DNA from: Minisyncoccota bacterium
GTDB lineage: Bacteria > Patescibacteriota > Minisyncoccia > Phycocordibacterales > UBA9973
DNA: 64,000 nt
Direction of reading: 5' to 3'
NCBI GenBank assembly: GCA_028718635.1
Contig: JAQULK010000001.1
Span: 479,755-543,754, forward strand
In this document: piece after piece, positions 1-48,774 of the stretch
Position numbering within the stretch: the stretch's first letter is position 1
Layout: every line of letters starts with the position of its first letter
Notes under the pieces: model-generated
The model's database searches: none
What the model saw: only the letters and a program-made list of their open reading frames with translations
Told to the model about the DNA's origin: nothing
Translations under genes and position numbers: made by a program

Positions 1-1640
1 CCTGATTTGATGGCGAGGATGGCAGGGTCATTTTCATTTTTTGTTTGGATAATAATTTTTTCTTCAGTGTTTTCGATTATGGAAAGTATGATTTGAATGA
101 TTTTTTCTCCCATTTTAAAATTTGGAATGCTCCAAAGTGAATCAAAAGAAGCCACGATAGAAAGCGGAATCTTGTCTTTGAGATAAAAAAATGCCATTTC
201 TGTGCCCATGAGAATTGCTCCTCCGCTTTCAGCAGAAAATTCCCTTATAATTTTTTTCGCTCCAGCTGCTGTTTTTGCTGATTCTTTATCCAGCTTAAAA
301 ATTTTTATTTTCGGCTCGCCCGTAGGGCTATGCCCGAGGTGAAAAGTCTTCTCTATTTCTTCAAATACAGTATCGGTGCCGATGCCGAGAGGCAGCAGAT
401 TCCAGCTTCCACAAGAAACGCAAGCTACGTCTCCCTCTTTGTTCATCTCACATCTATTGCATATAAACATTCTTTTTTTGTTTTGGTGAGAACTATAAAG
501 GACTAGGGGTGCTTTGCATTTTTCACAACTTACTATTTCATTGCAGTCTTTGCACAGAGTCATGGTTGCCAAACCTTTTCGGAGAGTAAAAATGAAGATC
601 TTCTTTTTATTTTCAAGCGTAGATTTTATTTCTTTTATACTTTCGTCATTAAATATTTGGAATTTTTTATTATCTTTTTTTTCCCCGCCTGCCAATTGGC
701 GAGCGGGTTTTCCTAAAACCTCTATTTTTCCATTAAAATCAATTCTAAAAGACAATGGATATAAGGAATTAAAATTACCAATATCTTTTCTCCCTATTGT
801 CTCGTAACGTAGGATCTTATCAGCCATTACAAATCTTGCATTTATTTTTGAAGCATAAATTTCTACAAAAACTCTTAAATCAATATGAGTCTTATTCATC
901 ATCCTATAAGCATTCGAATTTTCATGTTCTAAAATTATAGTGCCAATGTCTTTTTTAGGAATAGATAGAAATATCGGAGTACAAATGATCAGGACCGGAT
1001 GAGTTGAGTTCACAATTTTCTCATAAGTTGCTAAATTTTTTTTAGCACTTATTCCGCCGTGCAAAGAAAAAGTGAATTGTTCAATTCCTTTTGATAATTG
1101 ATCAGTAAATTTTTCTATATCTGTCTCTGTTGGCAGAATCATAAAGATAGATTTATTTCTAGCAAAGGATTCACGAACCAGAGTTTTATATATAGAGATG
1201 CGGTCTCTTAATGGATATTGAAACAATAACTTCTCTGCTTTCAACTTTAATGTTGATCTTTGTGCAGGCTCGGCTCGTACATTTTGCAACCTGGCAATCT
1301 TGTCGTATTCTTCTATAAAAATATTTGGAATTAATGAAGAAATAGTGCTGTTTTTATTTTGAGCAAAATATTTACTTGTATCAAAAATCGTATCTAAAAA
1401 TTCTTTTAAAAAAACTGAACTCCCTTTATCTTTTGAGACTTTTCTAAGATTAAAATTCATTTTTCGTACATTGCTTTTTTCTGCTTTTAATTCTTCACTC
1501 GCGGTAACCAATGCCAAGGTTTCTTTATTTCTTATTGAAACAGACACAATGTTTCCAACATTTATATTTGAATTGGTAAAATAAGTTAAATCACCACTCG
1601 GGACACTTTTTTTAAGCGGTATTATAGATATTATTTTCAT
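1..1640 (-). CDS. priA: primosomal protein N' (PriA), 5' portion; gene runs off left window edge
   Basis: Hand translation of minus strand from ATG (plus 1638-1640) gives MKIISIIPLKKSVPSGDLTYF... open to position 1. Contains PriA-type Cys-rich zinc-binding insert (CKDCNEIVSCEKCKAPL...CNRCE...CVSCGS) followed by GIGTDTVFEEIEK. Absent from ORF track because no in-window stop. Confidence 0.5.
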   Translation of the reverse strand, partial: MKIISIIPLKKSVPSGDLTYFTNSNINVGNIVSVSIRNKETLALVTASEELKAEKSNVRKMNFNLRKVSKDKGSSVFLKEFLDTIFDTSKYFAQNKNSTISSLIPNIFIEEYDKIARLQNVRAEPAQRSTLKLKAEKLLFQYPLRDRISIYKTLVRESFARNKSIFMILPTETDIEKFTDQLSKGIEQFTFSLHGGISAKKNLATYEKIVNSTHPVLIICTPIFLSIPKKDIGTIILEHENSNAYRMMNKTHIDLRVFVEIYASKINARFVMADKILRYETIGRKDIGNFNSLYPLSFRIDFNGKIEVLGKPARQLAGGEKKDNKKFQIFNDESIKEIKSTLENKKKIFIFTLRKGLATMTLCKDCNEIVSCEKCKAPLVLYSSHQNKKRMFICNRCEMNKEGDVACVSCGSWNLLPLGIGTDTVFEEIEKTFHLGHSPTGEPKIKIFKLDKESAKTAAGAKKIIREFSAESGGAILMGTEMAFFYLKDKIPLSIVASFDSLWSIPNFKMGEKIIQIILSIIENTEEKIIIQTKNENDPAILAIKS

Positions 1641-1679
1641 ATAATTTATGTTTCATTCTAGCATAAAAATGTGTTATAC

Positions 1680-1718
1680 CCCCACACCTATTTCCTTGAT
1701 TTTAAATAGGTGTGGGGG
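1680..1718. other. 12-bp-stem hairpin (cccacacctatt / aataggtgtggg) in priA-mreB divergent intergenic region
   Basis: Perfect inverted repeat read directly from sequence; no T-run typical of terminator on either side. Confidence 0.3.
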
Positions 1719-1736
1719 TATATTGCTTCTATGGGT

Positions 1737-1818
1737 CCTGTTAGAAACCGCGGTCGCAATTTAATAGAAATAATCAAAACTAGTCACGGCTTTTTGACCG
1801 CGACCTGTTTCTAACGGG
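1737..1818. mobile_element. MITE-like inverted-repeat element (TIR CCTGTTAGAAAC / GTTTCTAACGGG) abutting mreB start codon
   Basis: Arms CCTGTTAGAAACcgcGGTCGC and GACCgcGACCtGTTTCTAACGGG are complementary over ~18 bp. The right arm ends immediately before ATG of mreB. Same TIR core as element at 3557-3687. Confidence 0.3.
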
Positions 1819-2832
1819 ATGGCATTCTTTTCAAATAAATTAGGGATAGATTTAGGAACGGCTAATACGCTGGTATTTATGCCTGGTAAAGGCATCGTTT
1901 TAAACGAGCCTTCAGTTGTGGCAGTTTCTGAACAAGATAATAAAATTATAGCGATTGGTTTTGAAGCAAAAGACATGATAGGTAAAACCCCGGAATCTAT
2001 TATTACTTATTGTCCAATGAAAGATGGAGTTATAGCAGACTATCGAGTTACTGAAGCAATGCTCCGTTATTTTATTGGGAAAGCGATGGGTAAATTTAAT
2101 TTTTTTAAACCCGATGTAATGATTTCTGTTCCTGCTGGGGTGACTTCTACTGAAAGAAGAGCTGTGATTGAAGCAGCGATACGTGCCGGAGCTAAAAATG
2201 CTTATGTGGTTAAAGAGCCGATATTGGCGGCGATTGGCGCAGGGATTCCAATTTATGAATCTAAAGGCTATATGGTTGTAGACATTGGCGGAGGCACGAC
2301 AGATGTGGCAGTAATTTCACTTGGGGGAATTGTATCTTCTACTTCAGTAAAGTGCGCCGGAAATAAAATAGATCAAGCCATAGCAGATTATATTAAAAAG
2401 ACTTTTAACTTAGCGATCGGTGATAGAACCGCCGAAGAGGTAAAAATTAAAATTGGTGCGGCTGTTCTTTTAGAAGAAGAGCTTCGTGTTACCATAAAAG
2501 GCAGAGATTTTATCCAAGGATTGCCGAGAAGCGCCCAGGTGGGGACTAATGAAATTGCCAAGGCAATAAATGATGAATTGAAACAAATAATAAAAGCTAT
2601 TAAAGATGTCCTTCAAGAAACTCCTCCAGAGCTCGCTTCAGATATTATTGACCATGGGATCATTATGACCGGCGGTTCTTCTCAATTAAGAAATCTTACA
2701 GATTTGGTTTATAGAAAAACCGGAGTCAAAGCTACCCTGGCTGAAGATGCTCTTTTTTGTGTGGTGAAAGGCACAGGCATAGCTCTCGAGCATTTAGATG
2801 TTTATAAAAAAACAGTTTTAAGTAAAAAGTAG
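1819..2832 (+). CDS. mreB: rod shape-determining protein MreB (actin-like ATPase)
   Basis: LGIDLGTANTLV N-terminus, DIGGGTTDVAV phosphate-2 motif, full-length MreB/Mbl similarity. Confidence 0.9.
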   Translation: MAFFSNKLGIDLGTANTLVFMPGKGIVLNEPSVVAVSEQDNKIIAIGFEAKDMIGKTPESIITYCPMKDGVIADYRVTEAMLRYFIGKAMGKFNFFKPDVMISVPAGVTSTERRAVIEAAIRAGAKNAYVVKEPILAAIGAGIPIYESKGYMVVDIGGGTTDVAVISLGGIVSSTSVKCAGNKIDQAIADYIKKTFNLAIGDRTAEEVKIKIGAAVLLEEELRVTIKGRDFIQGLPRSAQVGTNEIAKAINDELKQIIKAIKDVLQETPPELASDIIDHGIIMTGGSSQLRNLTDLVYRKTGVKATLAEDALFCVVKGTGIALEHLDVYKKTVLSKK

Positions 2833-2834
2833 AA

Positions 2835-3548
2835 ATGAATATTTTAGAGCACTTAGATAAAAATAATTTACACCACGCATATTTGATAGAAGGCGCGCGG
2901 GAAGAAATTTTTTTAGAAATTAAGGAATTTTTAAAAAAAATTGACGTAGATACTGTCGGTAATCCTGATTTTGTCAATATTTCAATTGATAATTTCAAAA
3001 TCGATGACGCTTTTGCTTTACGTTCAATGTCGGCTGGTAAAAGTTTTTCTTCTGTAAAAAAAATATTTTTAATTTATGCTAATACTATGTCTATAGATGC
3101 TCAAAATGTTTTACTTAAAATGTTTGAAGAACCGATAGAAAATACACACTTTTTTCTAATAGTGCCGGATGCCAACTTTCTATTGAAAACTTTCATTTCT
3201 AGATTTTATTTAATTTCAGCTAGGCCTTGCCTAGATGAAGAAGAGGCGAAAGAGATAGAAAAATTTATTAAGATGCCATTAAAAAATAGAATCGATTATA
3301 TTAAAGAATTACTTGCCGTGCCTGAGGAAAAAGAGGAGGACATCGCTCCACTTGATTCTGCCCGTTCCAAAGCTTTAAGATTTTTAGATGCATTAGAATT
3401 TGTTTTACATAAAAAAATGTCAAAGGCGGCCTTTGACATTAATCCATTTCTTCATTTTTTCAAAGTCCGAGAATTTCTTCGTATGCCAGGAAGTTCCACA
3501 AAAAGTTTGATGGAATCTGTAGCTTTAATTACACCAAATATGTTATAA
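2835..3548 (+). CDS. holB: DNA polymerase III delta-prime subunit-like (clamp loader AAA+)
   Basis: HAYLIEG motif near N-terminus typical of HolB/delta-prime; size ~237 aa; 3 bp downstream of mreB. Confidence 0.65.
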   Translation: MNILEHLDKNNLHHAYLIEGAREEIFLEIKEFLKKIDVDTVGNPDFVNISIDNFKIDDAFALRSMSAGKSFSSVKKIFLIYANTMSIDAQNVLLKMFEEPIENTHFFLIVPDANFLLKTFISRFYLISARPCLDEEEAKEIEKFIKMPLKNRIDYIKELLAVPEEKEEDIAPLDSARSKALRFLDALEFVLHKKMSKAAFDINPFLHFFKVREFLRMPGSSTKSLMESVALITPNML

Positions 3549-3556
3549 TAGGAGTA

Positions 3557-3687
3557 TGCAATCCCGTTAGAGATCGAATAGTTAAAAAATCAATCGGGTT
3601 GTAAATAAAAATATCAGCGAGTTTTGTCGAATTATTAACTTAAATTACGAGAATCTAAAGATTCTCTATCTCTAACGGGATGCAATA
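3557..3687. mobile_element. MITE-like element with 12-14 bp perfect TIRs (ATCCCGTTAGAGAT / ATCTCTAACGGGAT) flanked by direct repeat ATGCAAT; right duplicate carries frr start codon
   Basis: Left: tATGCAAT|CCCGTTAGAGAT...; right: ATCTCTAACGGG|ATGCAATata; internal ~95 nt AT-rich with secondary hairpin gagaatctaaagattctc. Confidence 0.45.
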
Positions 3688-4231
3688 TAATTTTTCAAAT
3701 TTCAAAATGGAGTTAAAAAAAGTGGGAGGATTTTTGAGTAAAGAATACAACCAACTTAACATAGGACGTGCATCACCAATGGTGCTTGATGGTATATCTG
3801 TTGAATCATACGGAACATTTCTCCCTATAAAGAATGTGGCTTCTGTGTCTATCGAGGATCCGAAAACACTTCGCATAGCTCCTTTTGATAAAACTCAAAT
3901 AAAAGGGATAGAAAAGGCGATCATCGCTTCAAATTTAGGTTTGTCGGTGGCGACTGACGACATGGGCATCAGAGTTATTTTCCCGCAACTAACGACTGAC
4001 ACCAGAAAGACTCTCGTAAAAGTTTTAAAGGAAAAACTAGAAGAACAGAGGATCGCTGTGCGCAGGGAACGCGAAACTATTTTGAGTGATATAGAGGCGA
4101 AGGAAAAAGGCGGTTCGATGACTGAGGATGAAAAGTTTCGAGCCAAGGAAGAATTGCAAAAAATTGTCAACGAAACAAATAGCAACCTGGAAGCAATTTT
4201 TGAGAAAAAAGAGCGTGAAGTAATGGGGTAG
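3680..4231 (+). CDS. frr: ribosome recycling factor
   Basis: Full-length RRF similarity (LDGISVESYG, RIAPFDK, RRERE motifs), 183 aa. Confidence 0.9.
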   Translation: MQYNFSNFKMELKKVGGFLSKEYNQLNIGRASPMVLDGISVESYGTFLPIKNVASVSIEDPKTLRIAPFDKTQIKGIEKAIIASNLGLSVATDDMGIRVIFPQLTTDTRKTLVKVLKEKLEEQRIAVRRERETILSDIEAKEKGGSMTEDEKFRAKEELQKIVNETNSNLEAIFEKKEREVMG

Positions 4232-4258: not shown

Positions 4259-5392
4259 ATGAGCATAATTATTTTTATAATCATCCTTCTAGTACTAGTA
4301 CTAGTTCATGAAGCTGGGCATTTTTTTACTGCGAAAGGATTCGGCATCAGGGTGGACGAATTTGGCTTTGGTTTTCCGCCGAAATTATTCAGTTTTAAAA
4401 AAGGGGAGACAGAATACAGTTTCAATTTATTGCCCTTGGGCGGTTTTGTTAGAATTTTCGGAGAGAATGTTGATGAGGCTAATTTACTGGAAGTTGGATT
4501 TTTAGATAAAGAAAATACTCCTGAAAAGATTGAATTGGAAAAAAGAAGTCTAGCAAATAAGCCAAAATGGCAGCAAGCTTCAGTGCTTTTCGCCGGAATT
4601 TTGGCTAATTTTTTATTAGCTTGGATTTTATTTTCTATTGGTTTTATGTCTGGGCTTCCGACATCGGCCGGCAGTGAACTTGCTGGTTATAAATTGCAAG
4701 ATGTGAATTTGGTAATCGTTTCCATTCTGCCGAAATCTCCTGCTGAAAATGCGGAGCTCAAAATAGGAGATAAAATCGTAAATATAAAAAATGATAATAA
4801 TTTTTCAGCCTCTATAAGTCCTGAAATTATAAAATCTTTTGTGGTTGATGGCGGAGGTAAGGAAATTGACATTGGATACACCCGAGGCAAAAATCCCGAA
4901 GTAAACATTGCCAAAATAACTCCAAAAGAAACCAACGGAGAATTTACCATCGGTATTTCGATGGATGAAATCGGTACGGCAAAATTACCCTTTTTTAGTG
5001 CGCTTTCAGAAGGGATGAAGCTAACCTGGTTTATGACCAAAAATACAGCTATAGGTCTTTTTACGCTTATTGTTGACGGGTTACGAGGGCAGGGGAGCTT
5101 TGCTTCAGTGACCGGCCCTGTCGGCATGGTTGGAATTGTGGGAGATGCTTATCAATTTGGCTTCGTCTATCTTTTATCCTTCACTGCCTTAATTTCAATA
5201 AATCTTGCAATCATAAATTTGATTCCATTTCCAGCTCTCGATGGCGGGCGGCTTTTCTTTTTATTAATTGAAAAAATAAAAGGTTCGCGCATCAATCCAA
5301 AAATTGCGAACACTTTAAATATGGTTGGTTTTAGTATTTTGATATTGCTTATGATTGTCATTACTTATCACGATGTAGTTAAATTGTTTTAA
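4259..5392 (+). CDS. rseP: RIP site-2 zinc metalloprotease RseP (M50) with PDZ domain
   Basis: HEAGHF zinc motif in first TM, PDZ-like middle, C-terminal LDGG motif. Confidence 0.85.
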   Translation: MSIIIFIIILLVLVLVHEAGHFFTAKGFGIRVDEFGFGFPPKLFSFKKGETEYSFNLLPLGGFVRIFGENVDEANLLEVGFLDKENTPEKIELEKRSLANKPKWQQASVLFAGILANFLLAWILFSIGFMSGLPTSAGSELAGYKLQDVNLVIVSILPKSPAENAELKIGDKIVNIKNDNNFSASISPEIIKSFVVDGGGKEIDIGYTRGKNPEVNIAKITPKETNGEFTIGISMDEIGTAKLPFFSALSEGMKLTWFMTKNTAIGLFTLIVDGLRGQGSFASVTGPVGMVGIVGDAYQFGFVYLLSFTALISINLAIINLIPFPALDGGRLFFLLIEKIKGSRINPKIANTLNMVGFSILILLMIVITYHDVVKLF

Positions 5393-5449
5393 CCTCTCCC
5401 CAACCCCTCTCCATATTAATGGAGAGGGGAAAGCAAGGGGTGAGGAGAA
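5393..5449. repeat. palindromic GGAGAGGGG-family element, copy a (cccctctccatattaatggagagggg + ggggtgagg tail)
   Basis: Shares stem cccctctcc/ggagagggg and 3' flank gggg(t/a)gagg with copies at 39790-39850 and 42760-42802. Confidence 0.5.
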
Positions 5450-5454
5450 TTTTT

Positions 5455-7153: not shown

Positions 7154-8302
7154 GTGAAAAAGAATTTACCCCTCTCATATACAGAGCTTTCGAAAAGAAA
7201 TTTAATTCACAATATTAAACAATTTAAAAATTTAGCCAAAAAAGGGACCCAATTCTCCGTTGCTATCAAGGGAAACGCTTATGGTCATGGACAGAATGAA
7301 GTGGCTCAAATTCTTGAGCCGTATGTGGATTATTTCCAGGTTGATAGTTTTGAAGAGTTAAGATTGTTGCGAAAAGTAAGCAAGAAAAAAGTTTTAGTTT
7401 TAGGATATATACAAAAGCTAAATTTATTAGAAGCCGTTAAACTCAGTTGTATTTTGACTGTTTTTTCAATACAGCAAATAAAGCATATATCAGCCATGGC
7501 TGATATATTAAAAATAAAACAAGAAATACATTTACCCGTAGACGCATATCTAGGACGAGAAGGATTTTTATTAGACGAATTGCCAAAAGTTTTTGGAGAA
7601 ATAAAAAAGTGCAAATTTATAAAACTCACTGGCATTTATGCGCATTTTGCAAACATTGAAGATACTTCTAATTTTACTCATGCGCAAAAGCAAATAAAAG
7701 AATATCAAAAAGCTTTAAAATTGGCAGAAAAATTTAATTTTAAAAACCTACAAACACACATATCAGCGACTTCTGGACTTTTAGCTTATGAAACAGGAAA
7801 GGGGATTCATCCAATTATACGCTTAGGTATTGGCGTTTATGGAATGTGGCCTTCTGAAAATTTGAAATTATTATACAAGAATAAAATTAATTTAAAACCA
7901 GTGTTCACTTGGAAAACAAAAATAGCGCAAATTAAAATAATGCCCTCGGGGAGAACTATCGGCTATGGATTGACCTATAAAACAAAAAAAGAAACCAAGA
8001 TTGCCATTATTCCTCAAGGCTACGCAGACGGATTTGATCGAGGTTTTTCCAATAATGGCGTAGTGCTGATCAAGGGTACTCGATGCAAAATTTTAGGCAG
8101 AGTGTCTATGAATATGTTTACAGTAGATGTGAGCCATCTGAAGGGTGTTAGAATGGAAGATGAAGTGGTACTTTTGGGAAAACAGGGTAAAAGTGAAATT
8201 ACTGCAGAAGAAATGGCAAAAAGAATTAATACTATTAATTATGAGATGACCACGCGGATAAGTGCATTGCTACCAAGAATTATTGTGAATTACGAAACAT
8301 AA
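7154..8302 (+). CDS. alr: alanine racemase (GTG start)
   Basis: AIKGNAYGHG PLP-lysine motif; last five codons and stop lie inside 112-bp repeat copy 1. Confidence 0.85.
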   Translation: MKKNLPLSYTELSKRNLIHNIKQFKNLAKKGTQFSVAIKGNAYGHGQNEVAQILEPYVDYFQVDSFEELRLLRKVSKKKVLVLGYIQKLNLLEAVKLSCILTVFSIQQIKHISAMADILKIKQEIHLPVDAYLGREGFLLDELPKVFGEIKKCKFIKLTGIYAHFANIEDTSNFTHAQKQIKEYQKALKLAEKFNFKNLQTHISATSGLLAYETGKGIHPIIRLGIGVYGMWPSENLKLLYKNKINLKPVFTWKTKIAQIKIMPSGRTIGYGLTYKTKKETKIAIIPQGYADGFDRGFSNNGVVLIKGTRCKILGRVSMNMFTVDVSHLKGVRMEDEVVLLGKQGKSEITAEEMAKRINTINYEMTTRISALLPRIIVNYET

Positions 8303-8397
8303 ACTTTTCTCCGGTACGGATTTTTCGAAGCTTGAAAAATCCTGAAGTTCTCGCGCCGCCGCGCTCGAAACCCTTGCGAAAAGTTATGTTTCGTAAT
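8286..8397. repeat. ~112-bp palindromic intergenic repeat, copy 1 (orientation A)
   Basis: gaattacgaaacataaacttttc...ggatttttcgaagcttgaaaaatcc...cgcgccgccgcgctcgaaac...gaaaagttatgtttcgtaattc; six copies in window. Confidence 0.75.
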
Positions 8398-8438
8398 TCA
8401 AGCTTGCTTTTTAAGCTTTTTTATATTAATCTATAAGT

Positions 8439-11313: not shown

Positions 11314-11425
11314 GAATTACGAAACATAAACTTTTCTTAGGTACGGATTTTTCGAAGCTTGAAAAATCCTGAAGTTCTCGCGCCGTCGCGCTCGAAACCC
11401 CTGCGAAAAGTTATGTTTCGTAATT
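11314..11425. repeat. ~112-bp palindromic repeat, copy 2 (orientation A)
   Basis: Near-identical to copy 1 (cgcgccgTcgcgc variant); its 3' end supplies the stop codon of 11424-11765 gene. Confidence 0.75.
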
Positions 11426-13102: not shown

Positions 13103-13564
13103 TTACCTACACGAGGTAGAAAGCGTATATCCGGCCGCTTGCGCCTCTTCCCCTGTTGTAAAGTAAACTCTGTTTTCTTGTTTGATAGTTTTCCCAGCAG
13201 AACAACCTAGAGAATAATATTTACTTCCCTTGCTTGAAGCAAAGAAATTTTTTCCTGAATTATTTGTATTATTTTCAGCTGGTGCCCTATTTTCGCTATT
13301 TATGAACGCAGATAGAACATTAGCCGTTTTGCCCGTAATTGGGTTCGTATATTCGATTTTTAGGCCTTTCTGGCTGTTTTTCTTTGATAGTCTACCTAGC
13401 TCAAATGACCCTATGCCCACTAGAATTACAATAACAACTACTAAAATATCCTTCCCCTTTTCGCTTTCTATGAATTGCTTGACCCCGTTAAAGACAGAGG
13501 GTCGCTGCGAGCCCTCGCGGTCTTTAACGGGGTTGATTTTTTCTTGGGAATTGTGTAGACTCAT
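13103..13564 (-). CDS. membrane-anchored protein with C-terminal Ada-like metal-binding domain
   Basis: Single TM (ILVVVIVILVGIG) then C-terminus ...KYYSLGCSAGKTIKQENRVYFTTGEEAQAAGYTLSTSCR resembling Ada_Zn_binding (YFxxxxEAxAAGYRPC). Start set at MSLHN to avoid overlap with rpmA. Confidence 0.4.
   Translation of the reverse strand: MSLHNSQEKINPVKDREGSQRPSVFNGVKQFIESEKGKDILVVVIVILVGIGSFELGRLSKKNSQKGLKIEYTNPITGKTANVLSAFINSENRAPAENNTNNSGKNFFASSKGSKYYSLGCSAGKTIKQENRVYFTTGEEAQAAGYTLSTSCR
13493..13532. mobile_element. 40-bp MITE-like palindrome (CCCCGTTAAAGAC ... GTCTTTAACGGGG) with flanking TTGA direct repeat, inside CDS 13103-13564
   Basis: 13-bp perfect TIRs related to CCYGTTAGARAY core of elements at 1737 and 3557; GC-rich loop; reading frame stays open through it. 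Confidence 0.35.
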
Positions 13565-25375: not shown

Positions 25376-25488
25376 AAATTACGAAATATAACTTTTCGAA
25401 GGGGTTTCGAGGCTGACGAGCCGAGAACTTCAGGAATTTTTAAGCTTCAAAAATTCCGTACCGAAGAAAAGTTTATATTTCGTAATTT
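25376..25488. repeat. ~112-bp palindromic repeat, copy 3 (orientation B, subtype ggctgacgagcc)
   Basis: Reverse-complement orientation of copy 1; between purE start and purH stop. Confidence 0.75.
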
Positions 25489-36736: not shown

Positions 36737-36744
36737 ATTATTTT

Positions 36745-36856
36745 GAATTATGAAACATAACTTTTCGAAGGGGTTTCGAGCGCGACGGCGCGAGAACTTC
36801 AGGATTTTTCAAGTTTCGAAAAATCCGTACCGAAGAAAAGTTTATGTTTTGTAATT
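36745..36856. repeat. ~112-bp palindromic repeat, copy 4 (orientation B)
   Basis: Between purD start and purN stop; cgcgacggcgcg core. Confidence 0.75.
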
Positions 36857-36861
36857 AATGA

Positions 36862-37491
36862 TTATTGTGTTAATTCTTGTAATACTTCGACATACAATGC
36901 ATTTTCTTTGATTTTTAATCGCCCATACAAGGACTCAACATTGTCACCTTCCTTGATTTTTTCAAAAGTTCTCCCTAAAACTGGACCAAAATCAAAATTC
37001 AAGGTTAAAAAATGAACCGATGATCCAGCGAAAGTGGCCTTTTTGTCCAAGAAATTAGCAATCGCTTTATCAGTCATCATGCCTTTGTTCCAAAGAGCTT
37101 CTGTTCCGTCTGGATTTTTAAAACTTTCATTAACTGTATCTGGAATTAATCCAGGGTGTAGATTTAAGATCTTATTTGGAAACGCAAGGATTACTTCATC
37201 TAAAATAATTTGTTTCCAGCCAGCCAAACAAATATACGTTGGATCAATTTTTCTTAGAAGCGCGAGCAAATTTTCTTTAGATTCGCAAATCTCAATTTTT
37301 AAATTATTTTTTCGAGCATGCTCTAGGCCTTGAGCCTTTTCAGTATCTGAAACTACTGCACAAATTTCAGCCTTAATTATCCCAGAATTGACTCCATCAA
37401 TTATCGCCTTGAGGTTTGTGCCAGTACCGGCATTAGAAATTAATACGACTAATTTTATTTTATCTGATGTTTTATTTGGTTGAGACATCAT
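36862..37491 (-). CDS. purN: phosphoribosylglycinamide formyltransferase
   Basis: KLVVLISNAGTGTNL N-terminus, formyl-transferase fold. Confidence 0.85.
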   Translation of the reverse strand: MMSQPNKTSDKIKLVVLISNAGTGTNLKAIIDGVNSGIIKAEICAVVSDTEKAQGLEHARKNNLKIEICESKENLLALLRKIDPTYICLAGWKQIILDEVILAFPNKILNLHPGLIPDTVNESFKNPDGTEALWNKGMMTDKAIANFLDKKATFAGSSVHFLTLNFDFGPVLGRTFEKIKEGDNVESLYGRLKIKENALYVEVLQELTQ

Positions 37492-38872: not shown

Positions 38873-38883
38873 AATTTTGTTTT

Positions 38884-38992
38884 AGTTATTTTACATCAAC
38901 TTTTTCCGGTACGGATTTTTTGAAGCTTAAAAAATCCTGAAGTTCTCGCGCCGTCGCGCTCGAAACCCCTCCAAAAGTTATGTAAAATAACT
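38884..38992. repeat. ~110-bp palindromic repeat, copy 5 (orientation A, degenerate ends agttattttacat...atgtaaaataact)
   Basis: Conserved core ccggtacggattttttgaagcttaaaaaatcctgaagttctcgcgccgtcgcgctcgaaacccct; 3' end encodes last 3 codons + stop of purQ. Confidence 0.7.
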
Positions 38993-39778
38993 AACTGCAT
39001 TTTTAAAAATTTGTAATCCTGCCCCTTCCCTCGGCCATAGCCCTACGGGCGAGGCCTTGGAAACCTTTTTATTAAATTGCCACATTGGATTTTGGTGCGC
39101 AAACATTGCCCTCTCCGGATGTGGCATCATGCCTAGTACTCTGCCATTATATGCTAAAACTCCCGCAATGTCATGTTCCGATCCATTTGGGTTTTTTTCT
39201 AGGTTTTGAAACTCGCAAATTTCTCCATTTGCATATACAAAAGCAATTTCCCCACTTTTTTTCATTTTTAGGTATTCTTTTTGAGAGATTTTATAACGTC
39301 CTTCACCATGAGCTATCGGTAATGATATCTTTCTGATATTTTTTAACCAAGGACTACTTGCCCCGCCATGGCGTGGGGTTCCTTTAGCCTCTAGGTCCAC
39401 CCACCTATCCAAATATTTTCCATTTTTATTATAGGTGAGCGCGCCGGGTAAGATTCCTAAATTTGTCATTATCTGAAACCCATTACAAATGCCTATAGCA
39501 AGAGTATTGCCTGATAAAAATTCTATTAACTCCTTCGCTAAATGATTTTTAAATTTATTTGCGTAAGCTTTCCCGCTTCCTGTGTCGTCTCCATAAGAGA
39601 ATCCCCCAGGGAAAACCAAAATTTGATAACCAGAGAGCATTTTCGGCTTTTTTATCAGATCATTAATATGCACAATATCCACGGCTCCGCCCACTCTCTC
39701 AAAAGCGAATTTTGTTTCTTCTTCGCAATTCAATCCGTATCCAGACATTATTATTATTTTTGGTTTTTTGTTTTTCAT
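38978..39778 (-). CDS. purQ: FGAM synthase I, glutamine amidotransferase subunit
   Basis: KIIIMSGYGLNCEEET..., catalytic GICNGFQ, HGEGR. Confidence 0.9.
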   Translation of the reverse strand: MKNKKPKIIIMSGYGLNCEEETKFAFERVGGAVDIVHINDLIKKPKMLSGYQILVFPGGFSYGDDTGSGKAYANKFKNHLAKELIEFLSGNTLAIGICNGFQIMTNLGILPGALTYNKNGKYLDRWVDLEAKGTPRHGGASSPWLKNIRKISLPIAHGEGRYKISQKEYLKMKKSGEIAFVYANGEICEFQNLEKNPNGSEHDIAGVLAYNGRVLGMMPHPERAMFAHQNPMWQFNKKVSKASPVGLWPREGAGLQIFKNAVSYFT

Positions 39779-39789
39779 GATTTTAAATT

Positions 39790-39850
39790 CTCCTCACCCC
39801 TTTCTTTCCCCTCTCCATTATTGATGTAATGGAGAGGGGCTGGGGAGAGG
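39790..39850. repeat. palindromic GGAGAGGGG-family element, copy b
   Basis: cccctctccattattgatgtaatggagagggg + ctggggagagg; between purQ start and paralog-3 stop. Confidence 0.5.
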
Positions 39851-44972: not shown

Positions 44973-45016
44973 TATGCGTTAGAGAGAGTAAAGCTCTCTC
45001 TAACGCATTTTTATTT
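44973..45016. terminator. bidirectional rho-independent terminator (tatgcgttagagagag taaag ctctctctaacgcat + T-run)
   Basis: 15-bp stem, 5-nt loop, T-tract; between convergent small ORF and trmB-like gene. Confidence 0.65.
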
Positions 45017-47618: not shown

Positions 47619-48774
47619 GCGCAGGTTCTGTGTCTGTTTGAATTATATTAAATCGCAAAACCCCGATGGTCTGGCCTTGCTTCGTCTTTACATTTACTCG
47701 CCATTTACCCTCGGCTAAATTGTAGCGCATAGAATACGTGCGGAAACCGCCATCTCGCCCGCCTACTACAGGTAAATTTATCGTACTTCCAGTTACCCAT
47801 TTCTTCTGTATTTCATCATAATATTGCCATTCGTGAACAATAGTAAGGTTTAGATTTTTAGGAGAAAAAATAGCACTAAAAGCATAGATGGGTTCCCCGG
47901 AAACCTGATTGAAATTTTGATATAAATTGAAATAACCTCTCCAACCATAATCCTCAAAAGTCACATCATAATTCCCTTCTGAATTTTTTTGTATCGAATG
48001 ATACACTCCGGCATCTTTTAAGGATAAAGGAATCGGGGGAATCAGATTCGTAAAATACAAAAAATTGATTAGAATAGAAATTCCTAAAATTAGGAATAAT
48101 AAATCACGAAACATAAACTTTTCTTCGGTACGGATTTTTTGAAGCTTAAAAAATCCTGAAGTTCTCGGCTCGTCAGCCTCGAAACCCCTTCGAAAAGTTA
48201 TGTTTCGTGATTTAAGGTTAATAAAATAAAATAAAATTAAAAGGAATACGGTAATAAAAAGTAAACTAAGAAATCCGGAAAGTAAAAATACCCAAGCACC
48301 TATTCTATGTAAAATCACCGGCACGATAAAAATGGCAAAGGAATAGATCGAAAGAAAAAATAAGCTTATTTGGAAACTAAGGCGAATATAATGACGTTTA
48401 AGTGATTCATTCGCTATAAAAGCAAGAGCAAGAAGGACAATAAAAGGCCAAGTTACAAATATATCTGCGCTTCTGAAATAAAACACCAAGTAGGTAGACA
48501 AAATTCCTCCAAAGAAAAATTGCAGTATGTTCACATACCAAAAATGCGCTTTTTGAGGATTTTTCTCAGCCCCTCTTTCGTTTTCTTGGAGGTGAATAAG
48601 GGTGATAAAGATGCCCACAATGAGCAAATGTCCTAAAACCCATAAATTCTCCCATAATGTGTCTACCCTATGAAGCGTGAGCGCATCAAAAACGAAACCT
48701 CCAACTAGGGATAAAGATGAGATAGGTCGTTCAAATCTTCCATAGAAATTGCGAATTGGATCTAGAAAAAACAT
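47599..48774 (-). CDS. polytopic membrane protein with C-terminal extracytoplasmic domain; carries in-frame copy of 112-bp repeat
   Basis: 5-6 TM helices N-terminally, then residues NLKSRNITFRRGFEADEPRTSGFFKLQKIRTEEKFMFRDLLF encoded by repeat copy 6, then a further TM and soluble domain. Confidence 0.5.
   Translation of the reverse strand: MFFLDPIRNFYGRFERPISSLSLVGGFVFDALTLHRVDTLWENLWVLGHLLIVGIFITLIHLQENERGAEKNPQKAHFWYVNILQFFFGGILSTYLVFYFRSADIFVTWPFIVLLALAFIANESLKRHYIRLSFQISLFFLSIYSFAIFIVPVILHRIGAWVFLLSGFLSLLFITVFLLILFYFINLKSRNITFRRGFEADEPRTSGFFKLQKIRTEEKFMFRDLLFLILGISILINFLYFTNLIPPIPLSLKDAGVYHSIQKNSEGNYDVTFEDYGWRGYFNLYQNFNQVSGEPIYAFSAIFSPKNLNLTIVHEWQYYDEIQKKWVTGSTINLPVVGGRDGGFRTYSMRYNLAEGKWRVNVKTKQGQTIGVLRFNIIQTDTEPALTEGVK
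48101..48213. repeat. ~112-bp palindromic repeat, copy 6 (orientation A, subtype ggctcgtcagcc), inside CDS 47599-48774 in frame
   Basis: aaatcacgaaacataaacttttcttcggtacggattttttgaagcttaaaaaatcctgaagttctcggctcgtcagcctcgaaaccccttcgaaaagttatgtttcgtgattt. Confidence 0.75.

Follow-up and report, generated by a model that had tools for sequence, protein, structure and literature searches.

Elements at the start codons of mreB and frr

We analyzed a 64,000-nt stretch of DNA from a Minisyncoccota bacterium (contig JAQULK010000001.1, positions 479,755 to 543,754; hereafter the window, to whose first letter all coordinates refer), in which two palindromic elements directly precede the genes mreB and frr and a third lies inside a coding sequence (CDS). 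The genes identified by Pfam in the region encode MreB, the DNA polymerase III delta' subunit (holB), ribosome recycling factor (RRF, frr), an M50 protease and an M24 peptidase. A first-pass annotation of the window had described the elements before mreB and frr as insertions that resemble MITEs (miniature inverted-repeat transposable elements) and bear terminal inverted repeats (TIRs) and a target-site duplication spanning the start codon, and this description was borne out at both sites. The copies at mreB, at frr and inside the CDS are called E1, E2 and E3, respectively, and their features are as follows.

1719–1724 (+): −10 box TATATT of the mreB promoter, leaderless type, 6 nt 5′ of the left ATG
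1731–1736 (+): left copy ATGGGT at E1, made up of the ancestral mreB start, the duplicated TGGG (1732–1735) and the 5′ T of the element (1736)
1731–1814 (+): upstream open reading frame (uORF) of E1, MGPVRNRGRNLIEIIKTSHGFLTATCF and then a stop; its TAA (1812–1814) lies in the right arm, 4 nt 5′ of the mreB ATG
1737–1818 (+): E1, 82 bp; helix 1 formed by CCTGTTAGAAAC and GTTTCTAACGGG, helix 2 by CGCGGTC and GACCGCG, ACCT being bulged out on its 3′ side; precedes the mreB ATG at 1819
1819–2832 (+): mreB (Pfam MreB_Mbl, E = 1.5e-132); its ATG is the first triplet 3′ of E1
3541–3549 (+): frr promoter, extended −10 box TGTTATAAT; overlaps the stop codon of holB
3550–3555 (+): AGGAGT, the spacer between the frr −10 box and the left ATG, not a Shine-Dalgarno (SD) sequence
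3556–3562 (+): left copy ATGCAAT at E2, the ancestral frr start codon plus the duplicated TGCAA
3556–3570 (+): uORF of E2, MQSR and then a stop, four codons; the stop is the TAG of the left arm
3563–3679 (+): E2, 117 bp; arms CCCGTTAGAGAT and ATCTCTAACGGG; just 5′ of frr
3680–3686 (+): right copy ATGCAAT at E2, the start of frr
3680–4231 (+): frr, ribosome recycling factor (Pfam RRF, E = 1.5e-47)
13479–13536 (−): E3 with its duplication, TTGA on both sides (TCAA on the coding strand), 4 bp
13483–13532: E3, 50 bp, CCCCGTTAAAGAC...GTCTTTAACGGGG, terminal pair C/G; inside CDS 13103–13564 (−)

At mreB, the arrangement noted earlier at 1737–1818, ending right before the ATG, was confirmed in the sequence; the A of this ATG is probably the last base of E1, its TG coming from the duplicated target. 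The promoter in the window reads TTGATT-17-TATATT and ends at 1724. E1 belongs to a subfamily with a CGCGxxC helix and a gene-proximal NCCT bulge, and the copy in locus L065 is its orthologue. At frr, the reported layout of ATGCAAT, TIRs and a second ATGCAAT exists, with coordinates one off from those first given. E2 carries an inner hairpin, GAGAATC-TAAA-GATTCTC, directly 5′ of its right arm, and members of its subfamily were also found at other genes (L057, L075, L091, L109, L121 and L167). When folding was compared with shuffles, we obtained dG −32.5 (z = −3.4) for E1, dG −37.7 (z = −5.5) for E2 and z = −6.3 for E3. In addition, CCYGTTAGARAY (≤1 mismatch) occurs 9 times in the window versus 1.5 expected, a number that 0 of 100 shuffles reached. 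An exact-protein lookup with Frr returned no identical protein on record.

A separate perfect hairpin of 19 bp, TATACCCCCACACCTATTT-(10)-AAATAGGTGTGGGGGTATA, occupies 1675–1722, inside the mreB promoter. It is an insertion polymorphism, present in the window and in L002, L008, L013, L020 and L041 and lacking in most relatives; it is flanked by duplicated TATA, which restores the TATATT of the −10 box to the right of the hairpin. A search of the whole window against Rfam 15 at gathering thresholds found only two tRNAs and no match on E1 or E2, and a scan of 1600–3800 at E ≤ 1 gave only chance miRNA-like matches, on this neighboring 19-bp hairpin.

Empty and filled sites in relatives

Scanning one genome per species with MreB yielded 80 Nomurabacteria/Paceibacterota loci. 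Empty-site alleles, which the first-pass annotation had proposed to look for in relatives, were found at both genes. Specifically, the mreB site is empty in 72/80 loci, which show TGnTATATT, ~6 nt and ATGGG, i.e., a leaderless-type promoter followed by one ATGGG, and the frr site is empty in 69/74 loci, which show TGnTA(T/C)AAT, 6 variable nt (7 in a few) and ATGCAATA. The mreB site is filled in 7/80 loci (L001, L012, L026, L028, L047, L057 and L065) and in the window; here, the insertion lies at the window's exact position, between two copies of ATGGG, with the junction ATGGGT-CCCG in L001, L012, L028, L047 and L057, ATGAGT in L065 and GTGGGT in L026. The frr site is filled in 5/74 loci (L009, L050, L054, L059 and L075) and in the window, with the junction ATGCAAT-CCCG, which also occurs in L097. 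Empty sites contain one copy of ATGGG or ATGCAA, and filled sites contain two. Each of the two sites is occupied by at least three subfamilies, which indicates repeated independent insertion at the same nucleotide. A 76-nt subfamily of the TACG type is present both at mreB (L026) and at frr (L050, L054, L059 and L097).

The same relatives bear on the AGGAG just 5′ of the left ATGCAAT, previously interpreted as an SD sequence displaced from frr. The 6-nt stretch holding it varies among the 69 empty and 5 filled relatives, in which an extended −10 box, TGnTA(T/C)AAT, is found 6–9 nt 5′ of the ATG (6 nt at most empty sites). Because relatives conserve the −10 box and not that 6-nt stretch, AGGAG is a variable spacer rather than an SD sequence, and frr, like mreB, looks leaderless. 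The associated proposal that folding of the TIRs reunites SD and ATG fails, since AGGAG is the spacer of a leaderless promoter.

A copy translated as part of its host protein

The first-pass annotation had listed a 40-bp relative inside CDS 13103–13564; it is a true family member, E3, that measures 50 bp rather than 40. E3 adds 54 bp (50 from the element and 4 from the duplication), in frame and stop-free, translated as (N)PVKDREGSQRPSVFNG(V) and positioned four codons 3′ of the ancestral start of the host gene, which encodes a membrane-anchored protein with an Ada-type zinc-binding domain. Homologues of a short class lack the insert and start MEKIKQFIESEKGKD, with MEKIKQF as the first residues, and those of a long class read MS.H.S.EKIN-PV(K/R)(D/N)REGSQRPSV(F/S)NG-VKQF, the E3 peptide being retained in homologues down to 58% identity. 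The original ATG of the host gene is lost, and the start is now seven codons upstream. E3 is read in the frame used by the uORFs of the family (P-V-R/K-N/D ... S/F-N-G), and other in-frame internal copies occur in the metagenomic sample described below (L086, L116, L129 and L136). Copies within coding sequences, of which E3 is one, would persist only if they are in frame and stop-free. The host protein itself (P0001; 13103–13564, −) is 100% identical to an NCBI protein of a Candidatus Pacebacteria metagenome-assembled genome.

Size and genomic location of the family

The total sample consisted of genome and metagenome contigs from 201 sources (1.64 Mb). Its metagenome part was collected by a two-arm scan (at least 120 stretches), with a pattern that demanded T and A beside the arms and not TG, and its locus part (~0.8 Mb) was fetched independently of the element and searched without required flanking bases. 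The further copies that a pattern scan had been expected to reveal were found, with a total of 163 elements in the sample. The ~0.8 Mb of unselected loci contained 18 elements, 18/18 of them at gene starts, at mreB, frr, atpD, atpC and the genes for an M50 protease and an M24 peptidase. Among all 163 elements, an ATG lies directly 3′ of 144, and 136 of these ATGs open an ORF that is at least 50 aa long or runs off the contig. The family is spread over dozens of different host genes, with multiple copies at non-homologous loci and, in L163, two near-identical copies on one contig.

Comparison of the left copy with the right ATGNN revealed identity at 5/5 positions in 91 elements and at 4/5 in another 12. 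At its first position, the left copy has A in 83%, T in 9% and G in 4% of cases, a usage that resembles that of start codons and suggests a start codon rather than a DNA word. GTG and TTG left copies are about as frequent as alternative start codons, and the duplicated NN roughly tracks ordinary second-codon usage. The profile of the upstream flank displayed no conserved motif besides the left ATGNN and, in particular, no purine-rich motif. For approximately half of the host genes, an upstream ORF on the same strand ends ≤45 nt away, and a −10 box occurs 4–9 nt 5′ of the left ATG in ~40%; given these mixed contexts, the common denominator is the start codon, not leaderless promoters. Only 3 copies were found on viral contigs, so phages are not a major carrier. 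A full-text literature search, confined to searchable holdings and hence no proof of novelty, found no description of such elements, and the family is apparently undescribed so far.

Some copies depart from the usual layout. The copy between atpD and atpC in L047 (723–842) is followed by ATA instead of ATG, and an internal ATG just 5′ of the right arm is in the reading frame of atpC (TATAAA-AACTAT-ATG-ACC-TCT-AAC-GGG-ATA...); the element seems to supply the atpC start codon and perhaps its −10 box as well. In about eight copies (L021 6419–6483, L025 997–1061, L090, L091, L094, L134, L173 and L196), the gene-distal flank reads AC(T/C)TGT-CCCG instead of ATGNNT, which may reflect a different target or a composite with another element.

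Anatomy, orientation and target duplication

The family consensus is T-CCCGT(TA/AC)GA(A/G)nn at the 5′ end and the complement TC(TA/GT)ACGGG-A at the 3′ end, with arm ends TCCCGTTAGAA...TTCTAACGGGA. The arms are 12–14 bp long and complementary at 12/12 positions in most of the 163 copies. Element lengths range from 60 to 154 bp and cluster at 60–70, 75–84 and 92–121 bp, and the interior (35–100 nt) is highly variable, largely self-complementary and grouped into subfamilies. The largest subfamily, to which E1 belongs, has a second helix, CGCG(G/A)(T/A)C paired with G(A/T)(C/T)CGCG, that shows compensatory variation and is accompanied by a 4-nt bulge, (A/T)(C/T)CT, on the 3′ side; the E2-type subfamily contains a local hairpin, GGAAATC-TAAA-GATTTCC, 5′ of the right arm. 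Approximately a quarter of the copies have an internal ACGGG ~19 nt from the 5′ end that could pair with the left arm. The reading frames of the elements are short uORFs only, with no coding capacity for a transposase. Four of five MITE features are present, namely a size of <500 bp without transposase, TIRs, a target-site duplication and occurrence at multiple loci. The fifth would be a cognate autonomous insertion sequence (IS) that has the same ends and encodes the transposase; IS1380-like ends (CC..., 4–5 bp duplication) offer a possible lead to it.

The interior asymmetries show that orientation relative to the gene is in one direction and nearly fixed. The CCT bulge is located beside the gene-proximal arm in 37 elements versus mirrored in 1, the internal ACGGG is near the 5′ end in 32 versus mirrored in 4, and the interior has A>T in 88 versus 41 elements and G>C in 87 versus 42. 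The usual layout is ATGNN-T-element-ATGNN-gene, which is most readily interpreted as a 4-bp duplication, TGNN, plus a T and an A that the element contributes at its flanks: the T that follows the left copy has no counterpart on the right, with only 28% T at position +6. The duplication at E3 is a clean 4 bp (TCAA), that at frr is 5 bp (TGCAA), and a few sites have 3 bp; variants ending in C...G yield a right-hand GTG (L116). We rejected the possibility that the left ATGNN travels with the element, as the same subfamily has different NN at different genes.

The earlier observation of compensatory changes between the arms of E1 and E2 is real, and its reading as a mark of selection for RNA pairing found no support: G-U-type mismatches are as frequent as the A-C type (5 vs. 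8 in helix 1 and 34 vs. 34 in the helix 2 region), and the sense fold is lower than the antisense fold in 70 elements and higher in 64 (p = 0.16). Inverted repeats that co-evolve, or a DNA hairpin, would produce such changes as well. Selection on the stem at the RNA level was rejected given the absence of a G-U bias, and a generic structured cis-regulatory RNA given the absence of both a G-U bias and a sense/antisense difference.

Proposed translation from the old to the rebuilt start codon

We favor, with modest confidence in the explanation as a whole, the view that E1, E2 and E3 are copies of a large family of non-autonomous, hairpin-shaped mobile elements of Paceibacteria/Nomurabacteria (candidate phyla radiation [CPR] bacteria) and that genes carrying them at the start codon would be expressed by uORF-coupled re-initiation at the rebuilt ATG. 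At the DNA level, insertion generates the old start codon followed by NN-T-hairpin-A and then TGNN-gene, so that an intact start codon is rebuilt, directly abutting the hairpin's 3′ base, with no change to the protein; copies occur almost exclusively where the TG of the target belongs to a start codon. In this proposal, the old start codon would retain its native initiation context, either a leaderless 5′ end (mreB and frr) or coupling to an upstream ORF; ribosomes would initiate there, translate into the element and melt helix 1. Three outcomes may then follow: (i) termination at or beside the rebuilt ATG (UAA-CGGG-AUG or an AUGA overlap) and subsequent re-initiation, (ii) in-frame read-through as an N-terminal extension or (iii) an early uORF stop, as at frr, that merely unmasks the rebuilt ATG. 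In the case of frr, translating the first codons (MQSR and stop) would melt the left arm, freeing the right arm and the ATG.

The reading frames of the elements are in line with this proposal. The frame of the left ATG reads ATG-NNT-CCC-GTT-AGA-A.. (M-x-P-V-R-N/S), and the interior is stop-free in this frame in 55/104 elements, compared with 17 and 20 in the other two sense frames and 22, 27 and 16 in the antisense frames. Similarly, 56/104 uORFs reach the rebuilt ATG versus 18.7/104 with shuffled interiors. Such frame-specific stop depletion is expected if ribosomes start at the old codon and are passed to the rebuilt one. Among uORFs that run to the end of the element, the commonest ending (28 cases, E1 among them) is a TAA in the right arm, 4 nt 5′ of the rebuilt ATG, followed by a TGA overlapping the ATG (ATGA; 15 cases) and an in-frame N-terminal extension finishing in (T/I)SNGM (~11 cases). 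SD-like motifs precede only ~6 of 52 window genes, and a −10 box lies directly before the ATG in at least 17/52.

Several observations weigh against this explanation. On the translational side, uORF translation and re-initiation are predicted from frame statistics only; 48/104 uORFs stop >12 nt before the rebuilt ATG, including MQSR at frr, and the TACG-type right arm has no in-frame TAA. Without a G-U bias or a fold asymmetry, moreover, the palindrome looks maintained at the DNA level, and there is no sign that the hairpin itself matters for expression. On the side of transposition, the length of the duplication is inconstant (3, 4 or 5 bp); the A of the new ATG is probably derived from the element or else part of a 5-bp duplication; and the 1.64 Mb contained no autonomous copy or transposase, no arm pair >200 bp apart and only 12 solitary arms. 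The metagenome sample was, in addition, chosen by a pattern demanding T and A beside the arms, though not TG. Two further ideas were discarded: a fixed length modulo 3, as obligatory in-frame read-through would demand, since lengths fall in all classes (27, 46 and 31), and a promoter in the right arm, since TTCTAA lacks the essential A−11 and T−7.

Targeting, retention and other explanations

The start sites may be targeted, or copies may be kept only there. Were insertion possible at any TGNN, with survival of harmless copies alone, and with TGNN at 1/16 and an assumed ~8% intergenic DNA, neutral intergenic sites would exceed start codons ~10:1 by rough estimate; the observed ratio is reversed, with 136/163 copies at starts. 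A bolder reading, which we offer only tentatively, is a new class of mobile elements homing to translation starts. Its machinery would recognize start codons or the initiation region, insert in a single orientation and use its own terminal base to restore the start, and hairpin and uORF together would form a portable translational control module. If this is true, tens of housekeeping genes per CPR genome would share a 5′ regulatory structure delivered by a transposon; the host genes would include mreB, frr and the atp genes as well as, to judge from N-terminal sequences, ssb and genes for ribosomal proteins.

More doubtful still is a purely selfish MITE, with direct SD-independent initiation at the rebuilt ATG, an irrelevant uORF and a location that reflects an N^TGNN preference combined with purging. 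This would accord with a genome that hardly uses SD sequences, where an ATG that borders on unstructured, A-rich coding sequence may suffice, with the 46% of uORFs that stop early, with arms that behave as DNA-level inverted repeats and with duplicated NN that roughly follow ordinary second-codon usage. Nevertheless, the threefold depletion of stops, specific to the frame that the left ATG opens, is not what a leftover should show, the rough estimate would place most copies at intergenic TGNN rather than at starts, and GTG and TTG left copies at the frequency of alternative starts suggest start codons over a DNA word.

We consider it unlikely that the element is an exapted cis-regulatory module whose basal stem binds a trans-acting protein (or acts as a switch), wiring tens of genes into one regulon, with the internal ACGGG permitting an alternative 5′ mini-hairpin that frees the right arm. 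Conservation of the 12–14 bp stem base across very diverse genomes while the interior is free, zero spacing between stem base and ATG with a closing T-A pair that uses the A of the ATG, the conserved asymmetric bulge, the internal third copy of the arm end in 32/136 elements and the repeated strikes on mreB and frr by different subfamilies all speak for such a role. Yet conserved ends are equally expected from transposase binding, no G-U signature of RNA selection is present, and no candidate binding protein is known. A module of this kind would be compatible with re-initiation at the rebuilt ATG and not strictly exclusive of it.

RNA processing, in which an endonuclease would cut the 3′ base of the stem between GGG and AUG to give a leaderless mRNA from the rebuilt AUG, appears improbable. 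Zero stem-AUG spacing in 144/163 elements, the many host genes that are otherwise leaderless and a conserved stem base suited to a structure- and sequence-specific RNase are what it predicts, but it leaves the open uORF frame and the conserved left ATG unexplained, about half of the host genes follow an upstream same-strand ORF within ≤45 nt and have no obvious leaderless promoter, in-frame copies are translated rather than excised, and there is neither a known enzyme nor an Rfam ribozyme match.

Programmed translational bypassing is known from phage T4 gene 60 and the mitochondrial 'byp' elements of Magnusiomyces. Take-off at the left ATGNN and landing on the identical right ATGNN would suit matching codons that flank a stable hairpin and, at frr, a stop three codons after the would-be take-off site. 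We give such a bypass very little credence, as it would make a stop-free uORF unnecessary, in-frame copies are translated through (as in the conserved E3 peptide), and the gaps of 66–127 nt exceed known bypasses. Scarcely credible, too, is a split ribosome-binding site, in which insertion parted frr from its SD and TIR folding reunites SD and ATG: it is prompted by the AGGAG just 5′ of the left ATGCAAT, which at 1 nt from the left ATG is too close for SD function and is conserved in none of the 74 relatives (TGnTA(T/C)AAT-N6-ATG is conserved instead), and neither mreB nor >100 other host genes have an SD there, in a genome where SDs are rare. The sequences also exclude pairing of the organism's anti-SD with the variable spacer.

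Other repeats in the window

The hairpin at 44973–45016, earlier noted as a terminator with the core in common, exists and is unrelated. The CCCGT/ACGGG ends are missing, and all that it has in common with the family is the 8-mer GTTAGAGA, found 6 times in the window versus 1.65 expected; its location between convergent genes and the following T-run identify it as an ordinary terminator. A separate palindromic repeat of ~115 nt is present in six copies in the 64 kb, in both orientations and mostly intergenic, with arms AATTACGAAACATAAACTTT and AAAAGTTATGTTTCGTAATT 71 nt apart and a conserved core of a GGATTTTTCGAAGCTTGAAAAATCC hairpin plus a GC-rich stretch. Its copies are located as follows.

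8286–8400: ~115-nt repeat
11315–11425: ~115-nt repeat
25376–25488: ~115-nt repeat
36737–36865: ~115-nt repeat
38882–38994: ~115-nt repeat
48100–48214: ~115-nt repeat

A third palindromic element is located at gene starts, at 5385–5452 (+) and 39785–39850 (−), and reads CCTCTCCCCA(A/G)CCCCTCTCCAT, a loop of 4–10 nt and ATGGAGAGGGGAAAG(C/A)AAGGGGTGAGGAGAATTT. It places a strong SD-like GGTGAGGAG ~8–14 nt before the likely ATG (~5455 for the M24 peptidase gene and 39778 for another gene), in a genome that hardly uses SD sequences.

Implications

Transposable elements are normally kept out of start codons, and this family lives on them, in hosts with tiny, densely packed genomes that mostly initiate without SD sequences; the question raised is how a DNA element finds, or is kept only at, start codons. 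If the proposed mechanism holds, the family would allow leaderless initiation, 70S re-initiation and uORF coupling to be studied in a natural setting in CPR bacteria and would explain many odd N-terminal extensions of the type MNPVR(N/S)...(T/I)SNGM as well as mis-called starts in CPR annotations. The presence or absence of an element at a fixed site is also a simple marker for strain-level population genetics in groundwater metagenomes.

Comparison with known systems

The closest structural parallels are found among small palindromic elements. The Correia/NEMIS elements of Neisseria are likewise small, non-coding and multicopy, have TIRs and a short target duplication, are co-transcribed with their neighbors as hairpins and vary in presence among relatives (PMC10969869). 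However, Correia elements duplicate TA and occupy varied intergenic positions in both orientations, whereas the present family sits on start codons (136/163), points in a single direction, duplicates TGNN and restores the start codon. Start codons are nowhere mentioned in a 2024 review of prokaryotic MITEs (PMC10969869), nor are elements of this kind described there. Rickettsia palindromic elements (RPEs) are palindromic and selfish, inhabit reduced genomes and are found in frame within genes, where they are translated (PMC10969869, PMC1779305), as are E3 and the copies in L086 and L116. RPEs are nonetheless ~150 bp long and scattered inside genes with no link to start codons, and internal copies are a minority here; in-frame intragenic insertion of the RPE type accounts for E3 and a few metagenomic copies, not for the 136 copies at start codons.

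REPINs and their RAYT transposases resemble the family in having two inverted conserved arms, a variable spacer and compensatory arm evolution, and differ in being extragenic, usually 3′ of genes, with no target duplication; no RAYT gene was found here, although no search was aimed at one. The attC sites of integrons are imperfect palindromes of 57–141 bp in which only the ends are conserved and the interior is variable; the ends are GTTRRRY/RYYYAAC-like, to be compared with GTTAGAA/TTCTAAC here, and polarity comes from extrahelical bases. In our family, the order of the core is reversed (5′-GTTAGAA...TTCTAAC-3′), the TACG variant has no core motif, cassette arrays are absent, we saw no integrase, the target is duplicated, and the hosts are housekeeping genes in conserved synteny. 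Identity with attC was rejected on the reversed core order, the core-less TACG variant and the housekeeping host genes.

Regarding expression, a split ribosome-binding site of the T4 gene 38/25 type was rejected, with AGGAG not conserved and no purine-rich motif upstream. Leader-peptide coupling and re-initiation are known from ermC-type leaders and the MS2 coat-replicase junction. As in our proposal, such systems rely on a short uORF that, when translated, opens a hairpin masking or adjoining the main start, with stop and start within a few nt of each other or overlapping (ATGA). What would differ, judging from the sequences, is that the leader is made by a transposable element and that the uORF starts at the former start codon of the gene. 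Leaderless and 70S-scanning initiation are both listed among the modes of initiation (PMC9031893). Start-codon location, fixed orientation and a rebuilt start codon set this family apart from the bacterial MITEs, REPINs and RPEs described to date.

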